Part shown: positions 1,235 to 38,466 of the stretch, piece by piece
How the letters are laid out: every line of letters starts with the position of its first letter
How positions within the stretch are numbered: the first letter of the stretch is position 1
Assembly (NCBI GenBank): GCA_035293665.1
Contig: DATGMK010000028.1
Span: 36,341-76,340 of the forward strand
Length of the DNA: 40,000 nucleotides
Source: Reyranella sp.
Lineage (GTDB): Bacteria; Pseudomonadota; Alphaproteobacteria; Reyranellales; Reyranellaceae
Reading direction: 5' to 3'
Position numbers and translations under genes: made by a program
Notes under the pieces: generated by a model
The model's database searches: none
What the model saw: the letters and a program-made list of their open reading frames with translations, nothing else
Told to the model about the DNA's origin: nothing

Positions 1235-2116
1235 CTACACGCGGACGTGCGCCCCGATGAACGCCACCATGCGGTCGAACAGGTCGCCGGCCTTTGACAG
1301 ATCGGGCGACCCGCCCTGGCGGACCATGTCGATATATTCGAGCGCGATCGAGCCGCCGGCCTTCCGGTAATCGGCGCAGAAGCGCTGTGGCTCGTTGCCG
1401 TCGAACGGCGATTCCGGGTCCCGGTAGTCGTGCACGGCGTCGCCGCGGCTCTGATACCAAACGGCGGGCGGGGTGAGCACGTTCTCGCCGCGCTCCAGCG
1501 CCATCGTCGGGTTGCCTTCCGCCATGGCTTCCTCGGTGCGCCAGTACGAATCGTGGCGCGCGATGATCGACTCCAGCTTCTCGCGCTTGGCCATGCGGTA
1601 GCGGCTGAACGGGTTGATCACCGGCCATGACATGATCACGCAGCGCACGCTGGCATCCTGCGGCGGCGTGCCGGCCGGCAATGGGATCGCGGCATAACGC
1701 GGGTCGTCGGGCCGCATCGCGACCAGCATCGCGAGATGCCCGCCGCTCGACTGGCCCGAAAGGCCGATCAGGTCGGGCCGGGTCTTGAGCGCCGGCGCGT
1801 TCGCCTTGGCCCAGCGCACCGCATAGTTGATGTCCTGCACCGAGGCCGGATACGGATCCTCGTTCCCGGAGCGGAAGTCGAGCGCGATCGACACGACGCC
1901 ATGCGAGGCCATGTGCTGGTGGCGCAGCTTCTCGGTCATCCGATCGCTCTGGCACCACGCACCGCCATGGCATTCGACCATCGCCGGGAACGGTCCAGCG
2001 CCGCGCGGCTTGTAGATCGTTGCGAGCAATGGCTTGTCGCCGTGGCGCAGATATTCGACGTCCTCGACGTCGTAGGTGGCGGGCTTGACGTCGACGGCTG
2101 CGGCTGCAGTGGACAT
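1235..2116 (-). CDS. Alpha/beta hydrolase (esterase/lipase type)
   Basis: ATG at 2116 with a GGGAGG SD. HGGAW oxyanion-hole motif and GQSSGGH (GxSxG) nucleophile elbow. Confidence 0.85.
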   Translation of the reverse strand: MSTAAAAVDVKPATYDVEDVEYLRHGDKPLLATIYKPRGAGPFPAMVECHGGAWCQSDRMTEKLRHQHMASHGVVSIALDFRSGNEDPYPASVQDINYAVRWAKANAPALKTRPDLIGLSGQSSGGHLAMLVAMRPDDPRYAAIPLPAGTPPQDASVRCVIMSWPVINPFSRYRMAKREKLESIIARHDSYWRTEEAMAEGNPTMALERGENVLTPPAVWYQSRGDAVHDYRDPESPFDGNEPQRFCADYRKAGGSIALEYIDMVRQGGSPDLSKAGDLFDRMVAFIGAHVRV

Positions 2117-2276
2117 GGCATGCCTCCCTGGGCGTCCGGTTTTCCGCGGCCGCACTTTAGCGCAGATTCCTACCAAGGGCTCGTCCGGCCGTTGGGGCGA
2201 GAGGCAGCTCGCGAAATCCGACGGGACTGCCTCGCCTCTGTGGGTCCTGCCCTCCCTCTCTTGGGCTAAGGGCGCC

Positions 2277-2864
2277 CTATGCCTTGGGCGTGATCGAAGC
2301 CACCACCAGTTGACTGTTGATCGCCGTCAGGCTGTCGCCGCGCTTTACCCGTGGCAGCTGCTGGCGGCCAACATCGGAGGTCACGTCAAAGGTGCGCACT
2401 TCGCCTCCGCCGGGATTCACCAGCGTGATGGTGTTGGCGCCAGGATCGACGCCCACGATGGTCCAGTTGGCGATCAATTCCGACAGCCTGCCGCCGGCTG
2501 CGGCCTGGTTGGTTTCCACGGCGACGGCCACGGACCCGGCGCGGGAGGCCGGCGTCTGCACGCCGGGGCTGGAAAGCACGAAGGTGCGGGTATCCTCGAT
2601 GCCCAGCACAACGTAGTCGCCGACCCTCGTGCTGCTGATGTTGGCGGCCAGTGGGCTGACGTTCAGCACGCGCCGAGTGCCGTCAGCAGATATGACGGTC
2701 ACGGTGCGAGCGCCGGTATCGACTGCCGCTATTCTCCCTTCGAGTGCGTAGTGAGTCTTCGTCTGTATGCCGGCAGTGGCCTGATCGGGCTGCGCGAAGG
2801 AATGGCTGCTCGCCAGCGCCGAACCCGCGAGAGCACCGACGATCAGGGATCTTCTCTTGAACAT
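2277..2864 (-). CDS. Secreted protein with two internally repeated beta-rich segments, family not recognised
   Basis: ATG at 2864 preceded by GAGGAGGAAG. Signal peptide MFKRRSLIVGALAGSALASSHSFA. Two similar segments: GRIAAVDTGARTVTVISADGTRRVLNV...VGDYVVL and WTIVGVDPGANTITLVNPGGGEVRTFDV...RGDSLTAI. The ORF-track start at 3656 is an artefact. Confidence 0.7.
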   Translation of the reverse strand: MFKRRSLIVGALAGSALASSHSFAQPDQATAGIQTKTHYALEGRIAAVDTGARTVTVISADGTRRVLNVSPLAANISSTRVGDYVVLGIEDTRTFVLSSPGVQTPASRAGSVAVAVETNQAAAGGRLSELIANWTIVGVDPGANTITLVNPGGGEVRTFDVTSDVGRQQLPRVKRGDSLTAINSQLVVASITPKA

Positions 2865-2967
2865 GGTGGCTTCCTCCTCTTGGGCTGCAAGACGATTGAA
2901 GAAGTCCAGCGCGAGCTGCCCCTGACTTTGCGTTTGCTGAAGTATTGCAGGCTCCTCCTGTTCCGAA

Positions 2968-2981
2968 ATGACAATTGTCAT
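2968..2981. promoter_or_regulatory. Perfect 14-bp palindrome ATGACAATTGTCAT in a divergent promoter region (candidate operator)
   Basis: Read directly from the sequence. It lies in the A/T-richer spacer 2865-3008 between the secreted-protein gene and the MscS-family gene, 27 nt before ATG 3009. Confidence 0.4.
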
Positions 2982-3008
2982 CTCAACCGAGATTCGCATG
3001 CTCAAGCG

Positions 3009-5177
3009 ATGAGGCCGGCGAAGCCAGCCTCTTTCTTCTCGCTTGGCAGACCTTCTATCCAGGCACATGATGTGGCTGTGCCCAGGACGCTCGGAAGACT
3101 TGCGGCAGTTCTGGCCCTGACTCTCGTCGCGGCCATCGGGGGCGCCAGTGCGCAGACTTCGGCACCGCCAACGCCCCTCCCGCAGGATCAGTTCGACGCA
3201 CTGGTCAAGGCGATCACCCAATCTCTCTTCGAAAGGCTTAAAGCCGAGGGCGCGGCCACGCAGAAGCCCGTAGAAGAGAAGCGCAGTCGATTCGAGGTGG
3301 AAGCCAAGGACGAACCGGACGATGTCACATTGTTCGTCCAACAGGCCGGCCATGTAATGAGCGTCGGCATCCCTGCCCTGAGCACCGCGTTCGCCGACTT
3401 CGGCGAGGCACTCGACAGAGATCAGCGCGGCGGTTTGAGCCGCTCGCGATTCTTCCTGCTGGTCCTGGCGACAGCGGCCGTGGCCGTGGCGCTCGAGGCT
3501 GTGCTGCGCAGGCTGACGTCGCCGGCGCATGCCCGTCTGGCTGCGCAATCCGCTCCCGCCTTGGGCGTTCGCTCGCTGGCCGCCCTCGGTGCCCTGGCAT
3601 CGATCGATGGCGCGGGGGTGCTGCTCGTCTGGCTGGTCTATCGCGTCGCGGTCCATCTGTGGTTCGGCGGTACCACCGCCCAGAACACATTTGGCGCTGC
3701 CTTGTTACTCGCCATTGTCTACTGGCGCCTCTACGTGTTCGGCATCCGATGCATCGTCCGACCGGCCCTACCGGCAGCCCGGCTGTGCGACATAGGAGAT
3801 GAAGAAGCGGGGCGCATGTTGCGCCTGGTATCCCTCCTCGTTCTGATCGCCGTCGTGTCGCGGGCACTCAACTTCGGGCTGGCGGCCGCGCAGGCGCCAA
3901 CCGACGCCATTGCGGCCTGGCGGATCTTCACGGCTCCAGTCGTGCTCCTGATCCTGTTGATGTTCGTCGTGCGCGTGCGCGATGGGGCAAAGCAGTGGCT
4001 GGTGGGCCTGGCCCGCGTAGCACCGTGGAACGGGTTCCTGGGCCGGCACTGGGTACCCATCGCCAGCGTGGTGTTCGTGGCCCTGGTTGCGACCCAGATC
4101 TACGGCGCGCTCACCGAACACCTCAATGCACCGAACGCCGTCCTGTTGACCCTGAACCTCATCATCGGCCTCCTGGTGTTCGAGACGCTGTTGCAGGCGG
4201 TCGTGCGGCGGCTCGACAGCCAGTTGGAGGGGTTCACGCCGGCCGACGACCGGCAAAGGTTGCCCGACGTTCTCGCCCGCTGCGCACGGGTCTTCGTCCT
4301 GATTCTGGCGATCGTGGTGCTTGCCGAGAGCTGGGTCGTCAATGTGCTCGGTCTGATCGACGCACGAGCATGGGATCGATTGGCCGCCGTCGGCCGATCC
4401 ATAGGGCTCACCCTCTTCACCGCGTTCGTGCTGTGGGAGCTCTTCAAGTACGCGACCGAAGCCTACATGTATCGGATCTCCCAGAAGAACCTCGCGGGCC
4501 GCGGCGACAAACGGACCGCCGGCTCGATTGCCGAGCGCTTCGACACCCTGATGCCGATGATCAGGGTCACGGTGGCGACGATCATTGCAGTCATTGCAGC
4601 ACTGATCGCCCTCGACCAGCTCGGCGTCAACACGGCGCCACTGCTGGCAGGCGCCTCTGTGCTGGGGTTGGCGATCTCCTTCGGCAGCCAGGCCCTGGTG
4701 AAGGACATCGTCTCGGGCATCTTCTACCTGGCCGATGACGCATTCCGGGTCGGCGAGTACATCCGTTGCGGGCAAGCGGAGGGAACGGTCGAGGGTTTCA
4801 CCCTGCGCTCGATTCGGTTGCGGCACCCCAACGGCCAGATCCAGGTCATCCCGTTCGGCGAACTCGGCCAGATATCCAACTACAGCCGAGACTGGGCGGC
4901 CGTGAAATTCAACCTTCGATTCGCCCGAGACACCGACCTCGAGAAGCTGCGCGAGGCCACCACGAAGGTCGGCGCGGACATGATGACCGAGCCGGAGCTC
5001 AAGGCCGACATCCTCGAACCGATCAAGATCCACAGCGTCGCCGAGGTCTCAGACAACGCACTGGTCGTACGCTTCAAGCTCAAGACCCGTCCCGGCAACA
5101 TCGCGACCATTCAGGATCGCACGCTACGCCAGATGCTCAAGGAAATGCCCAACCTCGGCATCACCTTCGCCACCTAA
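3009..5177 (+). CDS. Large MscS-family mechanosensitive ion channel
   Basis: C-terminal core LLAGASVLGLAISFGSQALVKDIVSGIFYLADDAFRVGEYI...GTVEGFTLRSIRLRHPNGQIQVIPFG is the MscS pore-helix/beta-domain signature, with many TM helices upstream. The start is uncertain: ATG 3009, or GTG 3072, which would give MAVPRTLGRLAAVLALTLVAAIGGASA. The ORF-track start at 2076 runs antisense through the neighbouring gene. Confidence 0.85.
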   Translation: MRPAKPASFFSLGRPSIQAHDVAVPRTLGRLAAVLALTLVAAIGGASAQTSAPPTPLPQDQFDALVKAITQSLFERLKAEGAATQKPVEEKRSRFEVEAKDEPDDVTLFVQQAGHVMSVGIPALSTAFADFGEALDRDQRGGLSRSRFFLLVLATAAVAVALEAVLRRLTSPAHARLAAQSAPALGVRSLAALGALASIDGAGVLLVWLVYRVAVHLWFGGTTAQNTFGAALLLAIVYWRLYVFGIRCIVRPALPAARLCDIGDEEAGRMLRLVSLLVLIAVVSRALNFGLAAAQAPTDAIAAWRIFTAPVVLLILLMFVVRVRDGAKQWLVGLARVAPWNGFLGRHWVPIASVVFVALVATQIYGALTEHLNAPNAVLLTLNLIIGLLVFETLLQAVVRRLDSQLEGFTPADDRQRLPDVLARCARVFVLILAIVVLAESWVVNVLGLIDARAWDRLAAVGRSIGLTLFTAFVLWELFKYATEAYMYRISQKNLAGRGDKRTAGSIAERFDTLMPMIRVTVATIIAVIAALIALDQLGVNTAPLLAGASVLGLAISFGSQALVKDIVSGIFYLADDAFRVGEYIRCGQAEGTVEGFTLRSIRLRHPNGQIQVIPFGELGQISNYSRDWAAVKFNLRFARDTDLEKLREATTKVGADMMTEPELKADILEPIKIHSVAEVSDNALVVRFKLKTRPGNIATIQDRTLRQMLKEMPNLGITFAT

Positions 5178-19058: not shown

Positions 19059-19577
19059 ATGGCCATCACACTTTATGATTCGACGGTTGGCTCGTTCCTG
19101 CAGACCCTCGGCGCCGTCGAGGGCTTCCTTGCCAAGGGGCTTGCGCACTGCAAGGAGAAAAACGTCGATCCCAACGAGATCGTCGAGACGCGGCTGTTCC
19201 CGGACATGCTGCCCTTCCGGTTCCAGGTCGTGGCGGTGGCGCACCATTCGGCCGGCGCGCTCGCCGGCGCCAAGGCCGGCAAGTTCGGGCCGCCGGGCCC
19301 GTCGACCGCCGACTACGCGGGCTTGCAGAAGCTGGTGAGCGATGCCAAAGCGACGCTGGAGCAGGTCAAGCCCGAGGAGGTCAACGCGCTCGAGGGCAAG
19401 GACGTGCTGTTCTCGGTCGGCGAGCTCAAGCTGCCGTTCAAGGCAGAAGGCTTCCTGATGACCTTCTCGATGCCGAACTTCCACTTCCACGCCACGACGG
19501 CCTACGACATCCTGCGCTCCAAGGGCGTACCGCTCGGCAAGCGCGACTACATGGGCCGCATGAAACTGGCGAAGTAG
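19059..19577 (+). CDS. DUF1993-domain protein
   Basis: ATG at 19059 with a GGAGGGG SD. MAITLYDSTVGSFLQTLGAVEGFLAKG...RLFPDMLPFRFQV...NFHFHATTAYDILRSKGVPLGKRDYMG is typical of DUF1993. Confidence 0.8.
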   Translation: MAITLYDSTVGSFLQTLGAVEGFLAKGLAHCKEKNVDPNEIVETRLFPDMLPFRFQVVAVAHHSAGALAGAKAGKFGPPGPSTADYAGLQKLVSDAKATLEQVKPEEVNALEGKDVLFSVGELKLPFKAEGFLMTFSMPNFHFHATTAYDILRSKGVPLGKRDYMGRMKLAK

Positions 19578-26954: not shown

Positions 26955-29323
<2,369 letters not shown>

Positions 29324-29327
<4 letters not shown>

Positions 29328-29746
29328 TGGGCCCCCTTCCTGCCGACCTTCGGCAGCTTGACGATCAGGCAGCCGTCCGCGACGCCGCTGATCGGCTGTT
29401 CATAGGTGCCGGCGGGCAGCCGGATCTGCCGCTCGAAGCGGCCCTGTGGCAGCTCGATGCGATGGATGACAGCGGTGCGCAGCTCGCGCGGCAAAACACG
29501 CTCGCCCCCGATCAGCAGGATGCCGTCACGGATGACAAGCTGCACCCGCTGCGGGTCCACGCCCGGCAGGGCCACCAGGACGAGGACGGCATCTTCGGTC
29601 TCGAGCACGTCGACCGGAGGCTCCCAGGACGGGGCCGCACTGCGGCTTGGCCCGGGAACCGTAAAAACTTCGCGGTGCAGCCGTTCGGCGCGTGCCAGCA
29701 TCTGCAGCGCCTCGGACCACATCCAGTTACGGGGATCTCCACTCAT
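29324..29746 (-). CDS. Hsp20/alpha-crystallin-family small heat-shock protein
   Basis: Alpha-crystallin domain PPVDVLETEDAVLVLVALPGVDPQRVQLVIRDGILLIGGER...RIELPQGRFERQIRLP...DGCLIVKLPK. No SD before ATG 29746. Confidence 0.85.
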
Positions 29747-29815: not shown

Positions 29816-31102
29816 TTAGTTGCCGATGAGGGCCTGGTAGACGAGGTCGCGCATCAGATAGCGATAGGGCAGCCGCGCCGTCTGCGACTGCATCATGAAG
29901 ACCACGTACATGTGCTCCCGCGGATCGTGCCAGAAATAGGTGCCCCAGGCACCGCCCCAATAGTAATCGTTGGGCGAGCCGGGCAACGGATTGCGGCCCT
30001 GCTCGTTGCGCACCGCGAAGCCCAGGCCGAAGCCCTGGCCCATGCGGGCGCTGGGCTCCAGCGCCTCGAAGCGCCACATGTCGTCGCCCATCTTGATGTC
30101 GGGCGGCAGCTGGTCGGCAGTCATCAGGTCGATGGTCTTGCGCGATATGATCCGCGCGCCATCGAGCTGGCCGCCGTTGGCGAACATCTGCAGGAAGCGG
30201 GCGTAGTCGGCCGCGGTCGAGACCATGCCGCCGCCGCCCGACTTCCACGTCGTCTTCAGCGTGACGTCCGGAATGTTGGGCGCGACATTGTTCGGGCCTT
30301 CCTTCTGCGGATGGGCGCCGCGGTCCTTCTTGTCCGGCGAGACCTCGAAGCCGGTATCGCCGAGCCGGAGCGGCTTGGTGATGCGCTCCTCGATGAACTT
30401 GTCGAGCGGCATCCCCGAGGCGACCTCGATGACGCGGCCCAGCACGTCGGTCGACATCGAATATTCCCAGTGCGTGCCCGGCTGGTAGAGCAGCGCCAGC
30501 TTGGAGAGCTTCTCGGCCATCTGCGCGTTGGTCTGGTTGGCGTCCATCACCTTCATGTCGATGTAGGACTGCTTGACCGGATTGCTGCCGGCGAGGCCGT
30601 AGGTCAGGCCCGAGGTGTGGCGCATCAGGTCCTGGACCGTCATCGGCCGGAACTGCGGCTCGAGCCCGAGCTCGACCGTGCCGTCGGGGCTCTTCTTCCG
30701 GGTCGAGACCTTGGTGTCGGCGAAGGCGGGAATGTACTTGGAGACCGGGTCGGCCAGGGTGAGCTTGCCTTCCTCGACCAGGATCATCGCCGCGACCGAG
30801 GTGAACGGCTTGGTCATCGAGGCGATGCGGAAGATCGTGTCGGTCTTCATCGGCGCCTTGTTTTCCCTGTCGCGGTAGCCGAAGGCATCGAACATCGCGA
30901 TCTTGCCGTTGCGGGCGATCAGCACGACCGCCCCGGGCAGCTCGTTGTTCTTGACGCCTTCCTCGATGCGATCGCTGAGCCGCTTCAGGCGCGTGGCCAC
31001 GAAGCCGACCTCCTCGGGCGACTGCGCCTTGGGAATGCCCTGCGCCGCCGCGGGCAGCGCAATGCCCAGCGCCAACAGGGCAGCAATCGTCCGGACCAGC
31101 AT
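29816..31102 (-). CDS. Secreted serine hydrolase (beta-lactamase / class C, esterase EstB-like family)
   Basis: ATG at 31102 with a GGGAGGAG SD. Signal peptide MLVRTIAALLALGIALPAAAQG. SxxK motif in FRIASMTKPFTSVAAM. Confidence 0.85.
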   Translation of the reverse strand: MLVRTIAALLALGIALPAAAQGIPKAQSPEEVGFVATRLKRLSDRIEEGVKNNELPGAVVLIARNGKIAMFDAFGYRDRENKAPMKTDTIFRIASMTKPFTSVAAMILVEEGKLTLADPVSKYIPAFADTKVSTRKKSPDGTVELGLEPQFRPMTVQDLMRHTSGLTYGLAGSNPVKQSYIDMKVMDANQTNAQMAEKLSKLALLYQPGTHWEYSMSTDVLGRVIEVASGMPLDKFIEERITKPLRLGDTGFEVSPDKKDRGAHPQKEGPNNVAPNIPDVTLKTTWKSGGGGMVSTAADYARFLQMFANGGQLDGARIISRKTIDLMTADQLPPDIKMGDDMWRFEALEPSARMGQGFGLGFAVRNEQGRNPLPGSPNDYYWGGAWGTYFWHDPREHMYVVFMMQSQTARLPYRYLMRDLVYQALIGN

Positions 31103-31274
31103 GTATCTCCTCCCAAACTCGATGGCCGGCATCAAAGCACGGCGGGCTGGCCTGAGTCGCATTTGCGCATCGTCGCGCCGCAAAATTTGGCACGATTTTT
31201 CGAAGCGATCTCGACGTCCAGGGGGTAGCGGAAACCTCGCAAACTGCGCAAACCCACCCGCAGCCACGGCTGAG

Positions 31275-31297
31275 TACCGGAAATACCGGAAATACCG
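31275..31297. repeat. Short tandem repeat TACCGGAAA x2.5
   Basis: TACCGGAAATACCGGAAATACCG, read directly. It lies in the 363-nt non-coding spacer 31103-31465. Confidence 0.6.
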
Positions 31298-31465
31298 CTA
31301 ATTCGCTGGGCGGCGGGCATCGTCATCGACGCCACCATGCACGATCGCGGCGCTCAACACCTAATATGGACAATGGCCTCGACAATTCTCCAAGGAACCG
31401 GCGCGAGAATCCGGGTCCAATGCCCATCGTGAGACGTGCGCCGAGCCCTTATCCACAGGACTCAT

Positions 31466-32215
31466 TTAGCGGCGCCTCATCAGATAGGTGTCCATGATCC
31501 AGCCGTGGCGCTCGCGCGCCGCGCTGCGAACCCGGTGGATCTCGTCGGAAACATCCTTCAGGTCGCCCGCAATGAGGATCTCGTTCTCGGTTCCGAGATA
31601 GGCGCCCCAGTAGATGTCGATGTCCTGGTCGGCGAAGCGACGGTAAGCCTCGACGCCGTCGAGCATCACCACGACGCTGTCGACGCCGGCGGGCCAGCCT
31701 TCCGACAAGCGCCGGCCAGTGGTGATCTCGACCGGCTGCCCGACGGTATTGAGCGTGATCCGGTGGCGCGCGGCCAACGCCTGTACCGCGCTGATGCCGG
31801 GAATGACCTCGTATTCCAGTCCCTGACGCGCGGCGATCGCCTCGATGTTGCGGATCGTGCTGTCGTAGATCGACGGATCGCCCCACGCCAGGACCGCCCC
31901 CACCTGCCCGTCCGCCAGATTGTCGGCGATCATCTTCTCGAACCGCTCCTGCTTGGCGCGGTTGAGGTCGTCGACGCAGGCGGTGTAGTCGGCCGGCCTC
32001 GTATCGCGGGGCGGGCTCGGCTCCTCGACGACGCGATAGGCCTTGTCCGTGCAGTAGCGCCGGCAGATCTCGCGCCGCAGCTCGACCATGGCGTCCTTGG
32101 GGCTGCCCTTCTCCAGCATGAAGAACACGTCGGCCGAGTTGAGTGCCTTGGCAGCCTGCCGAGTGACGAAATCGGGATCGCCGGCACCGATGCCGATGAT
32201 GAGGACCTTCTTCAT
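31466..32215 (-). CDS. cobF: Precorrin-6A synthase (deacetylating)
   Basis: ATG at 32215. MKKVLIIGIGAGDPD...WGDPSIYDSTIR...VIPGISAVQALAA is the tetrapyrrole methylase fold, and the overall layout matches CobF. Only 7 nt separate it from the upstream stop, with no SD. Confidence 0.8.
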   Translation of the reverse strand: MKKVLIIGIGAGDPDFVTRQAAKALNSADVFFMLEKGSPKDAMVELRREICRRYCTDKAYRVVEEPSPPRDTRPADYTACVDDLNRAKQERFEKMIADNLADGQVGAVLAWGDPSIYDSTIRNIEAIAARQGLEYEVIPGISAVQALAARHRITLNTVGQPVEITTGRRLSEGWPAGVDSVVVMLDGVEAYRRFADQDIDIYWGAYLGTENEILIAGDLKDVSDEIHRVRSAARERHGWIMDTYLMRRR

Positions 32216-32222
32216 GGGGCGG

Positions 32223-33260
32223 TTAAAGCAAAACCCGCTCGACAAGCCAAACGCCGCCCATGATCGCAACCAGCACCGAGAGAATTTGCGGCAGCCGCGC
32301 GAGTCGGCGCGGCCGGGCCAGCCACATCAGCGGCGGCATGACGATCGCGACGAAGGCAAGCTGGCCCAGCTCCACGCCGACATTGAAGCCGATCAGCGCC
32401 CGCACCATCGCCGCACGCGGCAGGCCGAGCTCGGTCAGGCCCGAGGCGAAGCCCAATCCGTGGATCAATCCGAACACGGCCGCGATCAGCCAGCGCCAGC
32501 GCGATTGTGCCGGCGCCAGCAGGTTCTCGAGCGCGACCCAGATGATGGTCGCGGCGATCAATGGCTCGACGATCGAGGCCGGTATGTCGACGACGCCCAG
32601 CGCGGCCAGGCTGAGCGTGATGCTGTGGGCGATCGTGAAGCCGGTGACGATGCGCACGATCGGCCAGAAGCCTTTCGCCAGCGCCAGCAGCGCCAGCAGG
32701 AACAAGAGATGATCGGGGCCGCTCAGGATGTGCCCGGCACCCATGGCGATGAAGTCGAGCCAGCCGGTCTTGGCGGTGCCGGGATCGATCGTCGCCTCAC
32801 GGCGCTCTGCATTGAACACCAGCTCGACGGAGGGCCGCTCCGGCATGCGCACGCTCATCAGGGTCTGGAAGTGGCTGCCCAGCACATCGCTCCAGTCGTC
32901 ACGGATGCGCAGGGGACCGCCAGACCTGGCGCACGACAATGCCATCTCCAGCATCATCTTGCCGTCGCCGGTCCGCGAGCCCTGAAAGCGGATGCGGCCG
33001 GGCGTGCAGGCCTCGCCCTCCCGGTCGAAGCGCGCTGCCTGGCTCATCGCCGCCGCCACGCGCTCGGCCGCCATCGTGTCGCCACTGGCCGCGCCATCGA
33101 GCAGCCGGACGTTCTCCTCCTCCTGCTCGGCCGTGACCAGCGTCAGCCGGTAAGTGAGCCGGCTACCGTCGACCTCGAGCGTCGCCAGTCCCGTGCTGGT
33201 CACGTGGGCGCTCGCGGGAATTGCCAGCAGGACCAAGAGCGCCGTAAGCAAACGCTTCAT
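32223..33260 (-). CDS. HupE/UreJ-family metal permease with an extra N-terminal domain of about 145 aa
   Basis: ATG at 33260 overlaps the upstream stop (ATGA). Signal peptide MKRLLTALLVLLAIPASA followed by HV. The C-terminal 180 aa form a polytopic core with GAGHILSGPDHLLFLLALL (HupE-like H..G.DH motif) and FTIAHSITL. Confidence 0.8.
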   Translation of the reverse strand: MKRLLTALLVLLAIPASAHVTSTGLATLEVDGSRLTYRLTLVTAEQEEENVRLLDGAASGDTMAAERVAAAMSQAARFDREGEACTPGRIRFQGSRTGDGKMMLEMALSCARSGGPLRIRDDWSDVLGSHFQTLMSVRMPERPSVELVFNAERREATIDPGTAKTGWLDFIAMGAGHILSGPDHLLFLLALLALAKGFWPIVRIVTGFTIAHSITLSLAALGVVDIPASIVEPLIAATIIWVALENLLAPAQSRWRWLIAAVFGLIHGLGFASGLTELGLPRAAMVRALIGFNVGVELGQLAFVAIVMPPLMWLARPRRLARLPQILSVLVAIMGGVWLVERVLL

Positions 33261-33763
33261 CGCACCTGCTCCCACGCCTCGGCGAGGTAGGTCGGCAGCA
33301 AGACGACGCCCGCTTCGCCGTCGACCTTGGCGTAGCGCGCCGCGCCGAGCGGATTGGTGCCGCCAAACTGGATGACGAAGGCCGCGCCGCTCGCCGGCCG
33401 AACGGTGACGCGCAAACTGTCGGCGCCGAGCGCGTATTCCGACGGCGGCACGCGCGCCACCTCCTCGGCCGCCAGCACGCGCATAGGCGCGGCGTTGCGC
33501 AGCAGGCGCAGGCCGGCTTCGAGGCGCTCCGCCGTCTCGACCGGCGCCTCCCAACGCTCGCCATTGCGGACGAAGCGCCTGCGATCGGCGCCTCGCCTGA
33601 TCTCGATCTCACGGACCTGCTCCGGCGCGAAAGCCATCAGCCCGCCCGGCTTGAACTCGACCGCGATGTCGGGCCGGCCGCCCTGCAGCGCGAGCCCCAC
33701 CAGGAACGCGAAAGCCAGCGCCGCCGCGGCCGGCCATGCCCAGCGAGTCAGCGCCGGCGCCAT
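33257..33763 (-). CDS. Small membrane-anchored protein, DUF4340-like (tentative)
   Basis: ATG at 33763 overlaps the upstream gene by 16 nt. One N-terminal TM (WAWPAAAALAFAFLVGLAL), then a soluble domain. The family call rests mainly on its usual position after GldG-like genes. Confidence 0.55.
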   Translation of the reverse strand: MAPALTRWAWPAAAALAFAFLVGLALQGGRPDIAVEFKPGGLMAFAPEQVREIEIRRGADRRRFVRNGERWEAPVETAERLEAGLRLLRNAAPMRVLAAEEVARVPPSEYALGADSLRVTVRPASGAAFVIQFGGTNPLGAARYAKVDGEAGVVLLPTYLAEAWEQVR

Positions 33764-35220
33764 AGCCACACGCCCAGACCGGCGGACGCCACCGCACCCG
33801 GCAGCAGGATCACCGTCAGGATGAAGATCCAGCGCACCTGCGCGCTGGTCAGCGTCACCATCGGCAGCACCTCGACCGGCGGCTTGAGGTTCGGCAGCCG
33901 CTCCTCGCGCAGCAGCCACGACACGCCGGCCAGCACGATGTCGGCGTTGGCGAGGTAGGGGAAGAAGGAGTTGCTGGCAAAGTCGGCATCGCCGACCACG
34001 ATCATGCGGAACGGCCGCGCGTCGGCTGCCAGCTTGCCCTCGGCCGCGACCGCCAGCGGATACGGGCGGCGCTGCGCGCTTTCCGCCTCCTCGCGGTAGC
34101 GGGCGCGATCCTGCACGACGTAGCTCTGCGGGCTGCTCGCGAACAGGGCGACGGCACGGACGCCCTCGTGGGCGGCAGGCTCGACCGGGCGCGCGCCCGG
34201 ATAGAAGGACAGCGCCTGCGAGCGCGTCACCGGATGGCTGGCGTATTTCGTGATCGCGATCATCTGCTCGTCGGTGAAATAGTGGTCGACCGGATCGACG
34301 ATCACGCCGTTGCCGACCCGTGCGCCGGCATCGGCGATCACCGCCGCGAGCCGTTCCTCGATCGCGAAGTCGGGCTCGATCAGCAGCATGTAGCTGCCCC
34401 CGTCCAAGAGGTACGTTCGCAGCAGATCGGCCTCCACGGGCAGGTGGGGCGTGCGCGGATTGGCATCGACCAGCGCCGCGCAATCCTGCGGCAACGGCCG
34501 CCCAGGCCGCAGCTCGACCTTGCGCGGTTCCAGGCCGAGCTTCTCGAGCGCGCGCCGCATCCGGCCGAGGCCGTGCTGCTCCATCTGCACCAGCCCCATG
34601 CCCTCGCTGTTGTGGCTATGGCTGTGGCTGCCCTCGAAGTGGGTGTGGAACTCGAAGTTGTCGATGTCGTACTCGCCGTGGCCGGTGATGAAGCACACGA
34701 CCGGCTGCTGGCGCCGCAGCGCGCGCAGGATGCCGAGCGCGACCTCGCGGTCATCGGTCGTCAGGACCTGCAGGCGGTGGCTCGACGTGACGATCACCGC
34801 CGTGTTGTAGAGCTGCACGCCGAACGAGGAGGCGCGCGCGGGATTGCGGTCGATGTCGACCGCCTCGACCGCCAGCCGCGGATTGAGACGCGCGAGCAGC
34901 TCCAGCATCGTCGCCAGCCCCCGGCCCGCGGCGTTCTCCTTCTGGAAGAAGTAGACGACCTGCACGGGCTCCGTGAGGCCGCGCACGATGTCGCTCGCTT
35001 CGCGCGACGGAGTGAACGCCTCCTCCCGGGTGAAGTCGAGATGGGCATCATGGCGATAGACGGCGACATTGGCCGCGAGCGTCGCCGCCAGCGCGCCGCC
35101 GACCACGCCCAGCCGCAGAGCCCAGCGCCGCCAGCCCGCGCCATAGACCCGGATACGCAGTCCCGCGGCGAACAGCACCAACAACGCGGCCAGGCAGGCG
35201 AGCGACCAGAGCGCGCTCAT
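33748..35220 (-). CDS. GldG-like ABC-transporter auxiliary protein (ABC-type uncharacterised transport system)
   Basis: ATG at 35220 overlaps the permease stop (ATGA). N- and C-terminal TM anchors. LDFTREEAFT...VVYFF...RLAVEAVDIDRNP...NTAVIV...FITGHGE...RMIVVGDADFASN matches the GldG/ABC_transp_aux pattern. A His-rich insert, FHTHFEGSHSHSHNSEG, follows the GHGE motif. Confidence 0.8.
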   Translation of the reverse strand: MSALWSLACLAALLVLFAAGLRIRVYGAGWRRWALRLGVVGGALAATLAANVAVYRHDAHLDFTREEAFTPSREASDIVRGLTEPVQVVYFFQKENAAGRGLATMLELLARLNPRLAVEAVDIDRNPARASSFGVQLYNTAVIVTSSHRLQVLTTDDREVALGILRALRRQQPVVCFITGHGEYDIDNFEFHTHFEGSHSHSHNSEGMGLVQMEQHGLGRMRRALEKLGLEPRKVELRPGRPLPQDCAALVDANPRTPHLPVEADLLRTYLLDGGSYMLLIEPDFAIEERLAAVIADAGARVGNGVIVDPVDHYFTDEQMIAITKYASHPVTRSQALSFYPGARPVEPAAHEGVRAVALFASSPQSYVVQDRARYREEAESAQRRPYPLAVAAEGKLAADARPFRMIVVGDADFASNSFFPYLANADIVLAGVSWLLREERLPNLKPPVEVLPMVTLTSAQVRWIFILTVILLPGAVASAGLGVWLWRRR

Positions 35221-35918
35221 CTTTCGGCCAGCCGGCGCGTGGTCAGGAACAGCGCCAGCAGGGCGCCGCTCACGAAGTAGCCGATGTCGGAGACGAACAC
35301 CGAGCCCGTCACCATCGGCCGGAAGTGCCCGATCAGCGACAGGTTCAGCACCACGCTGTCGATCGGCGACGGCAGCAGGTAGGCGACGGAATCGGCGAAC
35401 CACAGCATCAGGCTCGCCCCGAGCGTCAGCGCCGCCGCCACGACCTGGTTCTCGGTCAGGCTCGACATCAGGAGGCCGATCGCGACGATCAGCGCGGCAT
35501 GGCAGACCAGGGCAAGATAGCCGCTTCCGATCGGTCCCCAGTCAGGCGAGCCATAGGCTTCGAGCAGGCCGGCATAGACGAAGGCGCCGCAATACATCGC
35601 CAGCACCAGCCCGTAGACCGCGAAGAACTTCGCCAGCACGATCCAGATCTCGCCGACCGGCGCGGTCAGCAGCAGCTCCAGTGTGTCGTTGCGCCGCTCC
35701 TCGGCGAAGGCGCGCATGGTAAGCGCCGGCACCAGCAGGATGGTGAGCACGTACATCTGGTGGAAGATGTAGATCAGGTTGGCGACCTTGGTCGCGAACA
35801 GGGTCAGGCTGAAGGTGTAGCCCAGCACCAGCAGGAACACCGCGGCCACGGTGTAGCCGATCGGCGAGCCGAAGGTCGCCAGCAGCTCCTTGCGCAACAG
35901 AATGCCCAGCGACCTCAT
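35217..35918 (-). CDS. ABC-2-type permease (GldF/NosY-like)
   Basis: The ATG (MRSLGILLRKELLATFGSPIGY) overlaps the ATPase stop (ATGA). AFAEERRNDTLELLLTAPV is the conserved ABC-2 loop. Six predicted TM segments. Coordinates follow the ORF track; my hand indexing of line 35881 differs by 1 nt. Confidence 0.8.
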   Translation of the reverse strand: MRSLGILLRKELLATFGSPIGYTVAAVFLLVLGYTFSLTLFATKVANLIYIFHQMYVLTILLVPALTMRAFAEERRNDTLELLLTAPVGEIWIVLAKFFAVYGLVLAMYCGAFVYAGLLEAYGSPDWGPIGSGYLALVCHAALIVAIGLLMSSLTENQVVAAALTLGASLMLWFADSVAYLLPSPIDSVVLNLSLIGHFRPMVTGSVFVSDIGYFVSGALLALFLTTRRLAER

Positions 35919-36697
35919 GCCAGCGACAGGAACCACTCTTCGAGATCGGGCGTGTCGGCCATCGCCCGCACACCGCGCAGCCGGCCGTCGAGCAGGATGC
36001 CGACCCGATCGGCCGTCTTCGCGACCTCGCCCAGCACATGGCTGCTCATCAGCACGGTGTGCCGGCCGGCCAGCCCACGGATCAGCGCGCGGATCTCTAT
36101 GATCTGGCGCGGGTCGAGGCCGTTGGCCGGCTCGTCGAGGATCAGCAGCTCGGGATCGTGCACCAGCGCCTGGGCGATCGCCGTGCGCTGGCGGAAGCCG
36201 CGCGATAGCGTGCGCGTGAGGCGGTCGGCGACCGGTTCGAGCGCCAGCGCCGCAATCACGCGCTCGACGGCATCACGCACCGCGCGGTCCCCGACACCGC
36301 GCAGCCGCGCCATGAAGGACAGGAACTCGCGCACCCGCATGTAACCATAGACCGGCGCCGCCTCGGGCACGTAACCGATGCGGCGGCGCGCCTCGAGCGA
36401 CTGCTCCACCGCATCGCAGCCGCACACTTCGAGCTGCCCGTCGGTCGGCAGCAGGTAGCCCGCGAGCAGGCGGATGAAGGTCGTCTTGCCCGAACCGTTG
36501 GGCCCGAGCAGGCCGAACACCTCGCCGCGCTCGATCTCCAGGTCAAGCGAAGCAAGCGCCACGGTGGACCCGTAGCTCTTGCTCAAGCCGCGCGCGATGA
36601 CGGCCGCGGTCAGGATCGCCTCCTGGAGCGAAGTTGGCTTCGTTCGAAGTGTGCGGCGAACCCCTCCCCATTCATATGGGGAATACGGGATGGACAC
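35915..36697 (-). CDS. ABC transporter ATP-binding protein (ABC-2 subfamily, GldA/CcmA-like)
   Basis: Walker A GPNGSGKTT, signature LSRGFRQRTAIAQAL, Walker B LLILDEPANGLD and H-loop SSHVL. The start is ambiguous. GTG 36697 has no SD. A more plausible start is CTG 36613, 5 nt after a perfect AGGAGG, giving MTAAVIARGLSKSYG. Confidence 0.85.
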   Translation of the reverse strand: MSIPYSPYEWGGVRRTLRTKPTSLQEAILTAAVIARGLSKSYGSTVALASLDLEIERGEVFGLLGPNGSGKTTFIRLLAGYLLPTDGQLEVCGCDAVEQSLEARRRIGYVPEAAPVYGYMRVREFLSFMARLRGVGDRAVRDAVERVIAALALEPVADRLTRTLSRGFRQRTAIAQALVHDPELLILDEPANGLDPRQIIEIRALIRGLAGRHTVLMSSHVLGEVAKTADRVGILLDGRLRGVRAMADTPDLEEWFLSLA

Positions 36698-36705
36698 ATC
36701 TGCTC

Positions 36706-36900
36706 ATGGTCCCTCTCCGCCACGAACGTGGGGGCGAGGATGGGGCCCATTGCGAAGCAATGGGAGGGTGAGGTGGTCGGCGTCACAAAAACGGTCGTGG
36801 CGTAACGAAAGAAAAGAATCCCGACACCTCTCCCTCCCCGCGCAAGCGCGGGTCCCCTCCCTCTCCCCACGCGTATGACGCGCGCGGAGAGGGCCTCCGA
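36706..36900. repeat. Cluster of GC-rich hairpins with CCCTCTCC/GGAGAGGG arms (second REP-like family)
   Basis: CCCATTGC-GAA-GCAATGGG (36746-36764); CCCGCGC-AA-GCGCGGG (36837-36852); CCCTCTCC (36859-36866) paired with GGAGAGGG (36886-36893). All lie in the 272-nt spacer upstream of the ABC operon. Confidence 0.5.
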
Positions 36901-36969
36901 TCAGATCTGTCCGTCCCGTAGCATCAGAATGGGCAGGGTTGGCTTTGTTCGACCGCAGGGACTCTCGCT

Positions 36970-37839
36970 TTAGTCGTAGAACTCGGGCGCCTTCTTGGCC
37001 GCCTTGAAGAGCTCGGCATCGTGGCCGATGAAGAGCTTGGCGTTGTCGACGTCGCGGATCTGCCGGATGTGCGCGTAGGTCTTGTAGGCGTCGCTCGGGC
37101 TGTAGGTGCCCGGGATCGGCGGCAACAGGTTCTTCTCCAGGCTCTCGGTCAGGTAGACGCAATCGCTGGTCAGGATCGCCGTGCCGGTGTTCTTGAGCTT
37201 GACGACCATGAACTGGCTGCCCTGGGTGTGGCCGACGCCCTTGAACAGCCGCACCGTGCCGTCGTCGAACAGGTCGAGATCACCGTTGAGGCGGATCGTC
37301 TTCATGTTCTTGGTCTCGGCGAAGTCGCCGGGAATGTAGTAGAGCGAGTAGCCGACGTCGGGCCACCACGCCGCCTTGAACTCGTCGTCCTGCGCGATCA
37401 GCGTCGAGTTCTTGAACTGGCCGACATTGCCGCCGTGATCGAGATGCAGATGGCCGACCGCGACGTACTTAACGTCGTCCGGCTTCAGCCCGATCTTCTG
37501 CAGCTGGACCGGGATGGCATCGTCCTTGGTCATCTTCAGGCCGAAGCCCTTGGCGAGCGGACCCCACCAGCCGTCGGCGTCGGTGATGGTCTTGTCGTTG
37601 TTGCCGGTGTCGAACATCACCACGCCCTTGGGGTGCTTGATGACATAGAAGCTCACCGGCGCCCAATCGACGTTGCCGGTGGCGCCGATCTGCAGGGCCG
37701 CCTTGGGGAAGCCGCCGAGCGAGCCCGAAGTGAAGACGTAGAGCTTGGGGCCTTCCTGGGCCGCCGCGGGCAGTGCGAACCCGAACAGAGCCGCAATGCA
37801 CGCCAAACTACGCAGGGGACGCAGGACACGGAAATCCAT
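36970..37839 (-). CDS. Secreted MBL-fold metallo-hydrolase (N-acyl-homoserine-lactonase-like)
   Basis: ATG at 37839 with a GGAGGAG SD. Signal peptide MDFRVLRPLRSLACIAALFGFALPAAAQ. HLHLDHGG (HxHxDH) zinc motif. Later conserved His in GVGHTQG and the Asp/His pair in FIGHD. Confidence 0.85.
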   Translation of the reverse strand: MDFRVLRPLRSLACIAALFGFALPAAAQEGPKLYVFTSGSLGGFPKAALQIGATGNVDWAPVSFYVIKHPKGVVMFDTGNNDKTITDADGWWGPLAKGFGLKMTKDDAIPVQLQKIGLKPDDVKYVAVGHLHLDHGGNVGQFKNSTLIAQDDEFKAAWWPDVGYSLYYIPGDFAETKNMKTIRLNGDLDLFDDGTVRLFKGVGHTQGSQFMVVKLKNTGTAILTSDCVYLTESLEKNLLPPIPGTYSPSDAYKTYAHIRQIRDVDNAKLFIGHDAELFKAAKKAPEFYD

Positions 37840-37921
37840 GGGTGCTCCTCCTACTGCCGTTATGCGACAAATCGTCCTGCGCGCGACCGGCTTCGTCAAG
37901 CCCGTCGGATTGCACAGCAGG

Positions 37922-37959
37922 CATATTCCGTCCTGCCGATTCCGGCCGGACGGAATATG
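37922..37959. promoter_or_regulatory. 12-bp perfect inverted repeat CATATTCCGTCC-N14-GGACGGAATATG (candidate operator)
   Basis: Read directly from the sequence. It lies in the 222-nt divergent spacer between the MBL hydrolase gene and the SRPBCC gene. Confidence 0.35.
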
Positions 37960-38061
37960 TCCTAGCGCCATCTCCGCCGTCGCTCGAGCGATCATGTCCG
38001 AAAACCGCCAGCCGGGCGCTGCGCGGCCGCCTAGATCATCCGCCGAACGACGGAGCATTCG

Positions 38062-38466
38062 ATGGCCACTCTTCGACGGCAGATCGCCCTCAGCGCCCCC
38101 GCAGCCAAGGTCTGGTCAGCGCTGCGCGACTTCGGCGCGGTGCATACCCGCGTGGCGCCGGGCTTCCTCATCAAGCTCGAGATGGATCCCCAGTCCAACG
38201 GCAGCGACCGCATCGTCACCTTCTTCAACGGCATGGTGGCGCGCGAGCGGCTGGTCACGGCGGACGATCATGAGTGCCGGCTGGTCTATTCGGTCGTCGA
38301 GGGCCGGGCGAGCCACTACAACGCGGCCGTCCAGGTCTTCCCCGAGGGGAACGGCAGCCGGCTGGTCTGGACGATCGATCTCCTGCCCAACGAATTGGCA
38401 CCGGCGATCGGCGGGATGATGGATCATGCCACCGGTTTCATGAAGAAGGCGCTCGAAACCGTCTGA
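38062..38466 (+). CDS. SRPBCC-superfamily protein (polyketide cyclase/dehydrase-like)
   Basis: MATLRRQIALSAPAAKVWSALRDFGAVH...ERLVTADDHECRLVYSVVEG...HYNAAVQVFPEGNGSRLVW is the usual SRPBCC pattern. Confidence 0.8.
   Translation: MATLRRQIALSAPAAKVWSALRDFGAVHTRVAPGFLIKLEMDPQSNGSDRIVTFFNGMVARERLVTADDHECRLVYSVVEGRASHYNAAVQVFPEGNGSRLVWTIDLLPNELAPAIGGMMDHATGFMKKALETV

Follow-up and report, generated by a model that had tools for sequence, protein, structure and literature searches.

Anglerases (Ang-1, Ang-2; PDB 9GCE) consist of an N-terminal-His domain joined to a PF13795 permease, and their proposed role is to fish for metal ions on behalf of the channel (Franco Cairo et al., Nat Commun 2025, PMC12537917). 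RbAng-1a binds Cu2+ (dissociation constant, Kd, 74 nM) and Ni2+ (Kd 220 nM), Co2+ gives it no stabilization, and both HupE-type permeases and anglerases were proposed to be importers (PMC12537917). The neighboring genes reported for anglerases encode DUF4198, indigoidine-A and PfkB proteins, and neither ATP-binding cassette (ABC) transporters nor GldG is mentioned in that paper (PMC12537917). In a 40-kb stretch of Reyranella sp. DNA, called the window hereafter, a HupE/UreJ-2 permease of the anglerase type is instead encoded together with a secreted metallo-β-lactamase (MBL)-fold hydrolase, a GldG-type ABC-2 cassette and a DUF4340-like protein. This combination brings together three questions: what GldG-type ABC-2 cassettes transport outside Bacteroidota, which partners anglerase-HupE/UreJ-2 proteins have, and how Sec-exported metalloenzymes, including MBL-fold proteins, obtain the right metal in the periplasm, a problem that is largely unsolved.

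Several other described systems share parts of this layout. GldA/GldF/GldG of Flavobacterium johnsoniae belong to the same three families as the ABC part of the window locus and follow the same order, with an ATPase, an ABC-2 permease and a transmembrane (TM)-anchored GldG-type protein. NosDFY-NosL, as seen in cryo-electron microscopy work from 2022, reportedly brings together in one operon an ABC ATPase and an ABC-2-type permease, a large accessory protein in the periplasm, a metal chaperone and a periplasmic metalloenzyme as client. ZrgABCDE of Vibrio cholerae and PA4063-PA4066 of Pseudomonas aeruginosa resemble the window locus in their ZrgA/PA4063-fold module, their His-rich elements and a non-canonical ABC transporter of the mechanotransmission type; the direction of their transport is disputed (PMC9820375 versus PMC11481552). 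Lastly, the window permease shares with the HupE/UreJ nickel permeases (PF04955) and with riboswitch-linked cobalt HupE an HX5DH motif in TM helix 1 and an N-terminus that starts with His after processing.

We consider it probable that the window locus represents a six-gene envelope module for the handling of a divalent transition metal, with the MBL-fold hydrolase as its likeliest client and cobF as a passenger. The genes, all on the minus strand, encode in order a predicted Sec-exported di-metal MBL-fold protein, a GldA-like ATPase, a GldF-like permease, a GldG-like protein, a DUF4340-like protein and the anglerase-type HupE/UreJ-2 permease. This six-gene order, the overlaps between the genes, their conservation, the metal-type motifs and a ZrgA/Ang-like fold with an invariant mature His are all observed. 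A first-pass annotation of the window had outlined a different six-gene unit at 31466-36697, running from the ATPase gene to cobF. Its five junctions were borne out by direct reading of the minus strand: ATGA overlaps join ATPase to permease (35918-35915), permease to GldG-like gene (35220-35217) and DUF4340-like to HupE-like gene (33260-33257), the GldG-like and DUF4340-like genes overlap by 16 nucleotides (nt; ATG at 33763, stop ending at 33748), and the HupE-like TAA (32225-32223) is separated from the cobF ATG (32215) by a 7-nt gap (CCGCCCC) without a Shine-Dalgarno sequence. The proposed families also held up in Pfam and NCBIfam profile searches, which were used to assign the window proteins and returned ABC_tran, ABC2_membrane, ABC_transp_aux, DUF4340, HupE_UreJ_2 and CobF. 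What changed were the ends of the unit. The five genes from ATPase to HupE stand as a coupled unit, whereas cobF drops out because its adjacency is confined to the window and one close relative (L086), and the ATPase gene is not the first gene, as a conserved MBL-fold hydrolase gene upstream of it had been overlooked.

The permease (345 amino acids, aa; 32223..33260) matches HupE_UreJ_2 (PF13795) with 168.7 bits over residues 170-315, the cutoff being 24.5. Its layout comprises a signal peptide (1-18), a mature His19, a ZrgA/Ang-like beta-sandwich at about 19-165 and a six-helix HupE_UreJ_2 domain. Across an alignment of 31 homologues, the segment A-x-A|H19-V-T-S-T-G-L around the predicted cleavage site is invariant, and it is also found in two distant loci, L170 from an Azospirillum metagenome-assembled genome (MAG) and L171 from a Burkholderiaceae MAG. 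Equally invariant in the 31 homologues are C85 and C110 of the N-domain and, in the membrane part, H177-ILSGP-D183-H184 (HX5DH), H212, E232, E245, H267 and E297, and the helices contain conserved Asn residues as well. The HX5DH motif is a hallmark of the HupE family known from HupE mutagenesis. Several close homologues of this long protein match PF04955 in addition. Unlike the PF04955 permeases, the window protein belongs to the PF13795 branch, has an extra periplasmic domain and lies in no hydrogenase, urease or cob cluster: neither hydrogenase nor urease genes, nor cob genes other than cobF, were found in the 40-kb window, and there is no riboswitch.

An AlphaFold2 (AF2) model of the permease (predicted local distance difference test, pLDDT, 81.5) consists of the beta-sandwich N-domain and six long helices. 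Foldseek searches of the PDB with the N-domain returned two Zn-binding proteins, ZrgA (8f1b, E 8e-6, target-normalized template-modeling score, TM-score, 0.66; 8ezw, E about 1e-5) and PA4063, as well as the Cu-bound Ang-1 domain (9gce, E 3.5e-5, TM-score 0.52). Both Ang-1 (PMC12537917) and the window N-domain are thus closest in fold to ZrgA, and the window protein resembles the anglerases in having His directly after the signal peptide and a non-cytoplasmic, approximately 150-residue beta-sandwich, similar in fold to 9GCE and ZrgA, ahead of the PF13795 permease. It differs from Ang-1 in that the N-domain is not recognizable by sequence and carries two invariant Cys. As the architecture is that of Ang-1 and sequence homology is not detectable, we class the protein as anglerase-type and not as Ang-1. 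The first-pass annotation had taken this long HupE/UreJ architecture to be undescribed; it was in fact described in 2025 (PMC12537917). From the Zrg and PA4063-PA4066 systems the window differs in three respects: there the permease is MacB-like, ZrgA stands free and is no part of a permease fusion, and Zur regulates the operons.

Other long HupE_UreJ_2 proteins (loci L011-L085) also start with His after the signal peptide, and their N-domains differ. Their genes were seen in two kinds of neighborhood, a divergent DUF4198/PfkB/indigoidine-A cluster in Rhodobacteraceae, as in the anglerase paper, and a same-strand arrangement with a tetratricopeptide repeat (TPR) protein and DUF4331 in Burkholderiales, cyanobacteria, Verrucomicrobia, Acidobacteria and Bacteroidota. 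An hhalign comparison of the window N-domain with the N-domains of the DUF4331-linked proteins gave a probability of 51% (E 1.5e-4).

The GldG-like auxiliary protein (490 aa; 33748..35220) belongs to the GldG/ABC_transp_aux family (PF09822), as judged from its ABC_transp_aux match (70.9 bits, cutoff 34.7), its GHGE motif and its terminal TM anchors; a match to DUF7088 is weak (23.8 bits). In its AF2 model (pLDDT 70.5), the anchors are helices at residues 2-64 and 459-489, and between them lie a periplasmic thioredoxin-like domain and a GIFT/IFT52-like domain. Foldseek matched it to scaffold folds, namely the IFT52 N-terminal domain, OST48/WBP1 and thioredoxins. A PDB sequence search with this protein found nothing, nor did it match the GldG model in NCBIfam. 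A GldG-like protein of 100% identity bears the label Reyranella sp. MAG. GHGE is general, with occasional substitutions, across 106 full-length representatives of the wider family. By comparison, a His/Glu-rich insertion of about 24 residues within residues ~180-220 (GHGEYDIDNFEFHTHFEGSHSHSHNSEGMGLVQMEQHGLGR; 34561..34683) is confined among these 106 to the subfamily scoring best against the query, that is, the subfamily of this module. Its residues H181, E183, H192, H194, E196, H201, H203 and H216 do not vary among 31 sequences with identity down to 43%. The His-rich stretch noticed in the first pass (HTHFEGSHSHSH, 34647-34612) is indeed present.

Downstream of the GldG-like gene, the DUF4340-like protein (168 aa; 33257..33763) is predicted to be a membrane-anchored periplasmic protein. 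Its DUF4340 (PF14238) match of 29.7 bits, against a cutoff of 25, spans only residues 104-163, and its orthologues match weakly or faintly. At the equivalent place after the GldG-like gene, the small protein of the gammaproteobacterial MAG locus L172 (8356-9030) bears a (HD)n repeat of about 40 residues, and that of L170 (8362-8934) has His-rich stretches; the DUF4340-like protein of the window has neither.

Upstream, the ABC-2 family permease (233 aa; 35217..35918) matches ABC2_membrane_2/3/4 with 31-37 bits and has GldF (TIGR03518) as its best NCBIfam match, at 119 bits under a cutoff of 288.5. The ATPase (35915..36616) matches ABC_tran with 100 bits and, similarly, GldA (TIGR03522) best in NCBIfam, at 217 bits under 402.6. 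Conserved coding of the ATPase begins with ATCCTGACC (36616/36613), 2-5 nt past an AGGAGG (36624-36619), and the sequence ATCCTGACCGCGGCCGTCATC (36608-36624), which comprises the Shine-Dalgarno element and the 5' coding part, is conserved in the relatives L086, L001 and L003. The start is therefore probably a non-canonical ATC or CTG codon at 36616 or 36613. Gene callers choose the downstream TTG at 36586, which gives 223 aa and is the alternative. A start at GTG 36697, as annotated in the first pass, does not stand because this codon sits inside a 327-nt insertion missing from the relatives. Compared with the F. johnsoniae Gld proteins, the window proteins score far under the equivalog cutoffs, the host is proteobacterial, and a gld/spr context is lacking, whereas the His/Glu insertion, which is foreign to generic GldG, and the linkage to MBL, DUF4340 and HupE/UreJ-2 are additional. 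In the most divergent of the alphaproteobacterial copies (metagenome loci L156-L168; GldG identity 44-47%), about 290 nt more separate the ATPase match from the permease start, and this extra sequence may encode an extended ATPase C-terminus or a small open reading frame (ORF) of its own.

The conserved first gene (36970..37839) encodes a 289-aa MBL-fold protein (Lactamase_B, 53 bits), a secreted hydrolase from the AttM/AiiB-like lactonase family. Its N-terminus is a signal peptide of the Sec type, and its metal motif, HLHLDH, is intact. Its best matches in the PDB are acyl-homoserine lactone (AHL) lactonases such as 9khq (E 1.5e-33). It does not reach the AttM equivalog level in NCBIfam (169 bits versus a cutoff of 390) and, with its signal peptide, differs from the cytoplasmic AttM/AiiB quorum-quenching lactonases. 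The HxHxDH motif is retained in the MBL proteins of related and distant loci.

Upstream of this gene lies a promoter-like element, TTGACG-N17-GACGAT (37871..37899), followed by a leader of about 30 nt and AGGAGG. The same TTGAC(G/T)-N17 hexamer layout with a short leader precedes the MBL gene in nine other loci (L086, L001, L003, L005, L009, L007, L008, L087 and L088), which suggests a promoter function. A σ70 consensus scan gave zero matches and missed this element because its -10 hexamer is degenerate. Apart from the promoter-like element, only a TATGC(A/G) motif was recognized when the upstream regions were aligned by eye, and no Zur, Fur, NikR or CsoR-type box was seen in this alignment, which was not a formal motif search. 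Terminator-like sites were not enriched (5 observed versus 2.3±1.5 expected). Further upstream, in the divergent region 5' of the promoter, the window has a near-perfect palindrome at 37922-37959 with 17-nt arms (CATATTCCGTCCTGCCG / CGGCCGGACGGAATATG), which is not in L086.

Between the MBL and ATPase genes, the window carries a palindromic segment of 327 nt (36640..36966) that is missing in L086, L001 and L003, where the spacer is only about 9-30 nt. With its 37-nt terminal inverted repeats (36684-36720 and 36884-36920) and an RNA that folds as one long hairpin (-179.9 kcal/mol, z = -8.3), the segment reads as an insertion resembling a miniature inverted-repeat transposable element (MITE). 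A 76%-identical copy in opposite orientation occupies the same intergenic spot in L005 (6390-6570). Transcription of the genes that follow may be uncoupled or weakened by this insertion.

The conservation of the module was followed from two sides. On the HupE side, one genome per species was scanned with the HupE alignment, followed by tblastn of the window proteins. Over both sides together, the five genes from ATPase to HupE were found in L001-L010 (MAGs of Reyranella or Reyranellaceae, unclassified Alphaproteobacteria MAGs and one Hyphomicrobiaceae MAG), in L086-L088 (L087 being a Stellaceae MAG and L088 a metagenome contig), in two further contigs and in metagenome loci. Every contig examined among the HupE homologues had the order ATPase, ABC-2 permease, GldG, DUF4340 and HupE with MBL upstream, and the MBL gene was upstream on the same strand in all ten related loci that reach that far. 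In the genome scan from the HupE side, the GldG cassette occurred only in L001-L010. A general linkage of HupE_UreJ_2 genes to GldG cassettes was considered and rejected, as none of the 75 other loci had GldG, DUF4340 or ABC-2 nearby.

On the GldG side, L087 and L088 (59-62% identity) keep the six genes even with different flanks. A metagenome scan yielded 80 loci with GldG identity of 44-92%, and presence was counted per assessable locus, that is, where enough flank was available. The DUF4340-like gene and the ABC-2 permease gene were each present in 64 of 64 loci, the ATPase gene in 54 of 54, MBL upstream in 38 of 40, and HupE downstream in 49 of 51. GldG proteins of only about 33% identity that carry the His insertion occur in the same module in L170 (MBL-ABC-ABC2-GldG-small protein-HupE) and in L171 (ABC2-GldG-DUF4340-HupE), the contig of the latter beginning at the permease so that the MBL and ATPase genes fall outside its assessable part. 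L172 has MBL-ABC-ABC2-GldG-small protein and no HupE. Judging from these sequences, the module recurs across Alpha-, Beta- and Gammaproteobacteria. A linkage confined to this strain, which the first-pass annotation had named as refuting its proposal, is essentially what is seen for cobF; the linkage of the GldG cassette with hupE extends well beyond it.

How such a module might work can be outlined from its parts. Its metal would be Zn, Ni, Cu or Co, handled in the periplasm and at the inner membrane, where the N-terminal-His domain would capture the ion above the mouth of the HX5DH channel. The complex of ABC-2 transporter, GldG-like and DUF4340-like proteins would hydrolyze ATP in the cytoplasm and thereby drive the movement or transfer of metal on the periplasmic side, presumably by mechanotransmission as in NosDFY or MacB-type systems, and the co-encoded secreted MBL hydrolase would be the likeliest client or beneficiary. 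The analogy to NosDFY-NosL is based on likeness of operon architecture only. There is no sequence relation to NosD, NosL or NosZ; the window has a GldG-type accessory protein, a metal element fused to the permease and a putative MBL client, and no Nos family is among its Pfam/NCBIfam matches that would indicate homology to NosD, NosY or NosL. By the same analogy, one could tentatively imagine a relay in which the anglerase-HupE protein captures or gates the ion, the GldG insertion and the DUF4340-like protein accept it, and the ABC-2 transporter powers its insertion into the unfolded, Sec-exported MBL protein. We know of no dedicated metallation machine for MBL-fold enzymes.

A role in metal handling, which the first pass had also suggested, is made plausible by the HX5DH motif, by a ZrgA-like domain that begins with an invariant His and by the His/Glu insertion in GldG. 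Several points speak against it. Polymers, lipids or drugs, not metals, are the usual exports of ABC-2 transporters. The function of the module is deduced from sequence for all of its proteins, and neither a metal-responsive operator (by-eye alignment) nor a riboswitch (RNA scans) was found. The His/Glu insertion is modeled as flexible, and no metal-site geometry is visible in it because its pLDDT is below 50. A profile of the N-domain found no match at E<=10 among PDB sequences, and hhalign against the Rhodobacteraceae Ang-1 group gave a probability of 1%. The permease appears not to be obligatory, since HupE is missing in two of the 51 metagenome loci and in L172, and the MBL protein could be a syntenic neighbor with an unrelated lactonase role.

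Among the alternatives to this metal-handling module, one is metal efflux or tolerance, in which the ABC-2/GldG/DUF4340 proteins would expel excess metal from the periplasm and inner membrane or sequester it, with the HupE/UreJ-2 channel and the His-rich segments as a buffer. ABC-2 systems are typically exporters, and the long (HD)n and His-rich tracts resemble buffering or sequestering elements. Moreover, PA4063, which has the ZrgA fold, is encoded in an operon now read as a pyochelin-cobalt exporter (PMC11481552). We nevertheless regard efflux as unlikely, since no metal-sensing regulator of the MerR, ArsR or CzcR type adjoins the module in any listed genome locus, import is the direction proposed for HupE-type permeases and anglerases (PMC12537917), and a secreted metalloenzyme alongside suits supply better than detoxification.

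Alternatively, the cargo of the ABC-2/GldG/DUF4340 complex could be no metal at all. It would then export or process a lactone, lipid or polymer tied to the AttM-like lactonase, and the anglerase-HupE protein would be a mere metal supplier or just syntenic. Such a role would fit the closeness of the MBL protein to AHL lactonases, the IFT52/OST48-like scaffold fold of GldG, which has no known metal site, and the core of MBL, ABC and GldG without HupE in L172. It seems rather improbable to us, because the His/Glu insertion is invariant and exclusive to the GldG subfamily of this module, the His-rich or (HD)n DUF4340-like partners would be hard to explain, and HupE accompanies the cassette in 49 of 51 loci.

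The first-pass annotation had read the unit as a cobalt/nickel system for cobalamin synthesis, in which HupE and the GldG cassette would supply cobalt and cobF would be an integrated, co-regulated member. Some HupE/UreJ genes do stand under B12 riboswitches. Published work that treats HupE, cobalt and B12 riboswitches side by side also exists (PMC2667541, PMC7689651). The cobF gene itself (31466..32215) encodes an ordinary precorrin-6A synthase (deacetylating) of the aerobic cobalamin pathway, of 249 aa (TIGR02434, 335.2 bits, cutoff 195.8, profile 1-250/250), and only its unconserved position is unusual. The 7-nt gap to hupE, with no significant terminator, speaks for read-through, so cobF is probably co-transcribed with the operon in the window, and the adjacency is shared with L086 (90% identity), albeit with a gap of 9 nt. 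It is interrupted in the two other members of the clade of at least 82% identity with readable downstream DNA. In L001 (84%), cobF lies 8.4 kb from hupE with two SBP_bac_1/BPD_transp_1/TOBE_2 ABC transporters between them, and in the P0014 contig (82%) the distance is 4.9 kb, with a single SBP_bac_1-type ABC transporter plus a gene on the opposite strand in between. In L001, a stretch of about 40 nt similar to the 3' end of hupE (19420-19463 versus window 32216-32260) remains directly 5' of cobF, so that the adjacency appears to be ancestral to this clade and to have been broken later by insertions without loss of either gene. Signals for cobF expression may lie within this hupE-3'-like stretch.

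These insertions split hupE from cobF while both genes were kept, and in the P0014 contig cobF follows the opposite-strand gene, from which we infer that it has its own promoter there. Below approximately 82% identity, cobF was found at no assessable locus, including none of 32 metagenome loci. The absence of a B12 riboswitch upstream was reproduced at the gathering score over the whole window and at E<=1 over 31000-38300; the only RNA matches were a tRNA elsewhere and a chance snoRNA match. With no further cob genes in the 40 kb and no stabilization of the characterized anglerase domain RbAng-1a by Co2+ (PMC12537917), the supply of cobalt or nickel for B12 is a very unlikely function. The cobalt/B12 reading is weak given that cobF is only a lineage-specific neighbor. 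Its distribution indicates that cobF is a lineage-specific passenger of a narrow Reyranella sub-clade and no conserved or functional member of the module, and the B12 aspect is incidental to the significance of the latter.

That the genes form no functional unit and are merely inherited in synteny can practically be dismissed: flanking Glyoxalase_3, Polyketide_cyc2, beta-lactamase, HSP20 and Lon genes are indeed also conserved in Reyranella-like genomes, but the module order outlasts completely different flanks (L087, L088 and L170-L172, with L172 lacking HupE), persists in three proteobacterial classes and keeps its start/stop overlaps.

The metal-handling module proposed here is built from components that are all of known kinds, the anglerase architecture having been reported in 2025. 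The undescribed part, within the searchable literature, is the near-obligate linkage: we found there no description of the His-insert GldG subfamily, nor of its linkage with a secreted MBL, DUF4340 and anglerase-HupE/UreJ-2 across three classes of Proteobacteria. The module occurs at well over 100 loci in soil Alpha-, Beta- and Gammaproteobacteria, and the invariant His/Glu motif, which can be mutated, offers a testable entry point. It thereby provides a way into the function of the His-insert GldG/DUF4340 cassettes and into what anglerases feed.

Two further observations concern the surroundings of the module. The block of beta-lactamase-family, HSP20 and Lon genes downstream of it recurs in synteny in L086, L005 and the P0014 contig, and within the window the start of the Lon protease gene (26955-29327) lies 4 nt inside the HSP20 gene (29324-29746). 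Far from the module, at 2076-5177, two minus-strand ORFs (2277-3656 and 3768-5033) have no Pfam match, and a plus-strand ORF of 1033 aa runs over the same region.

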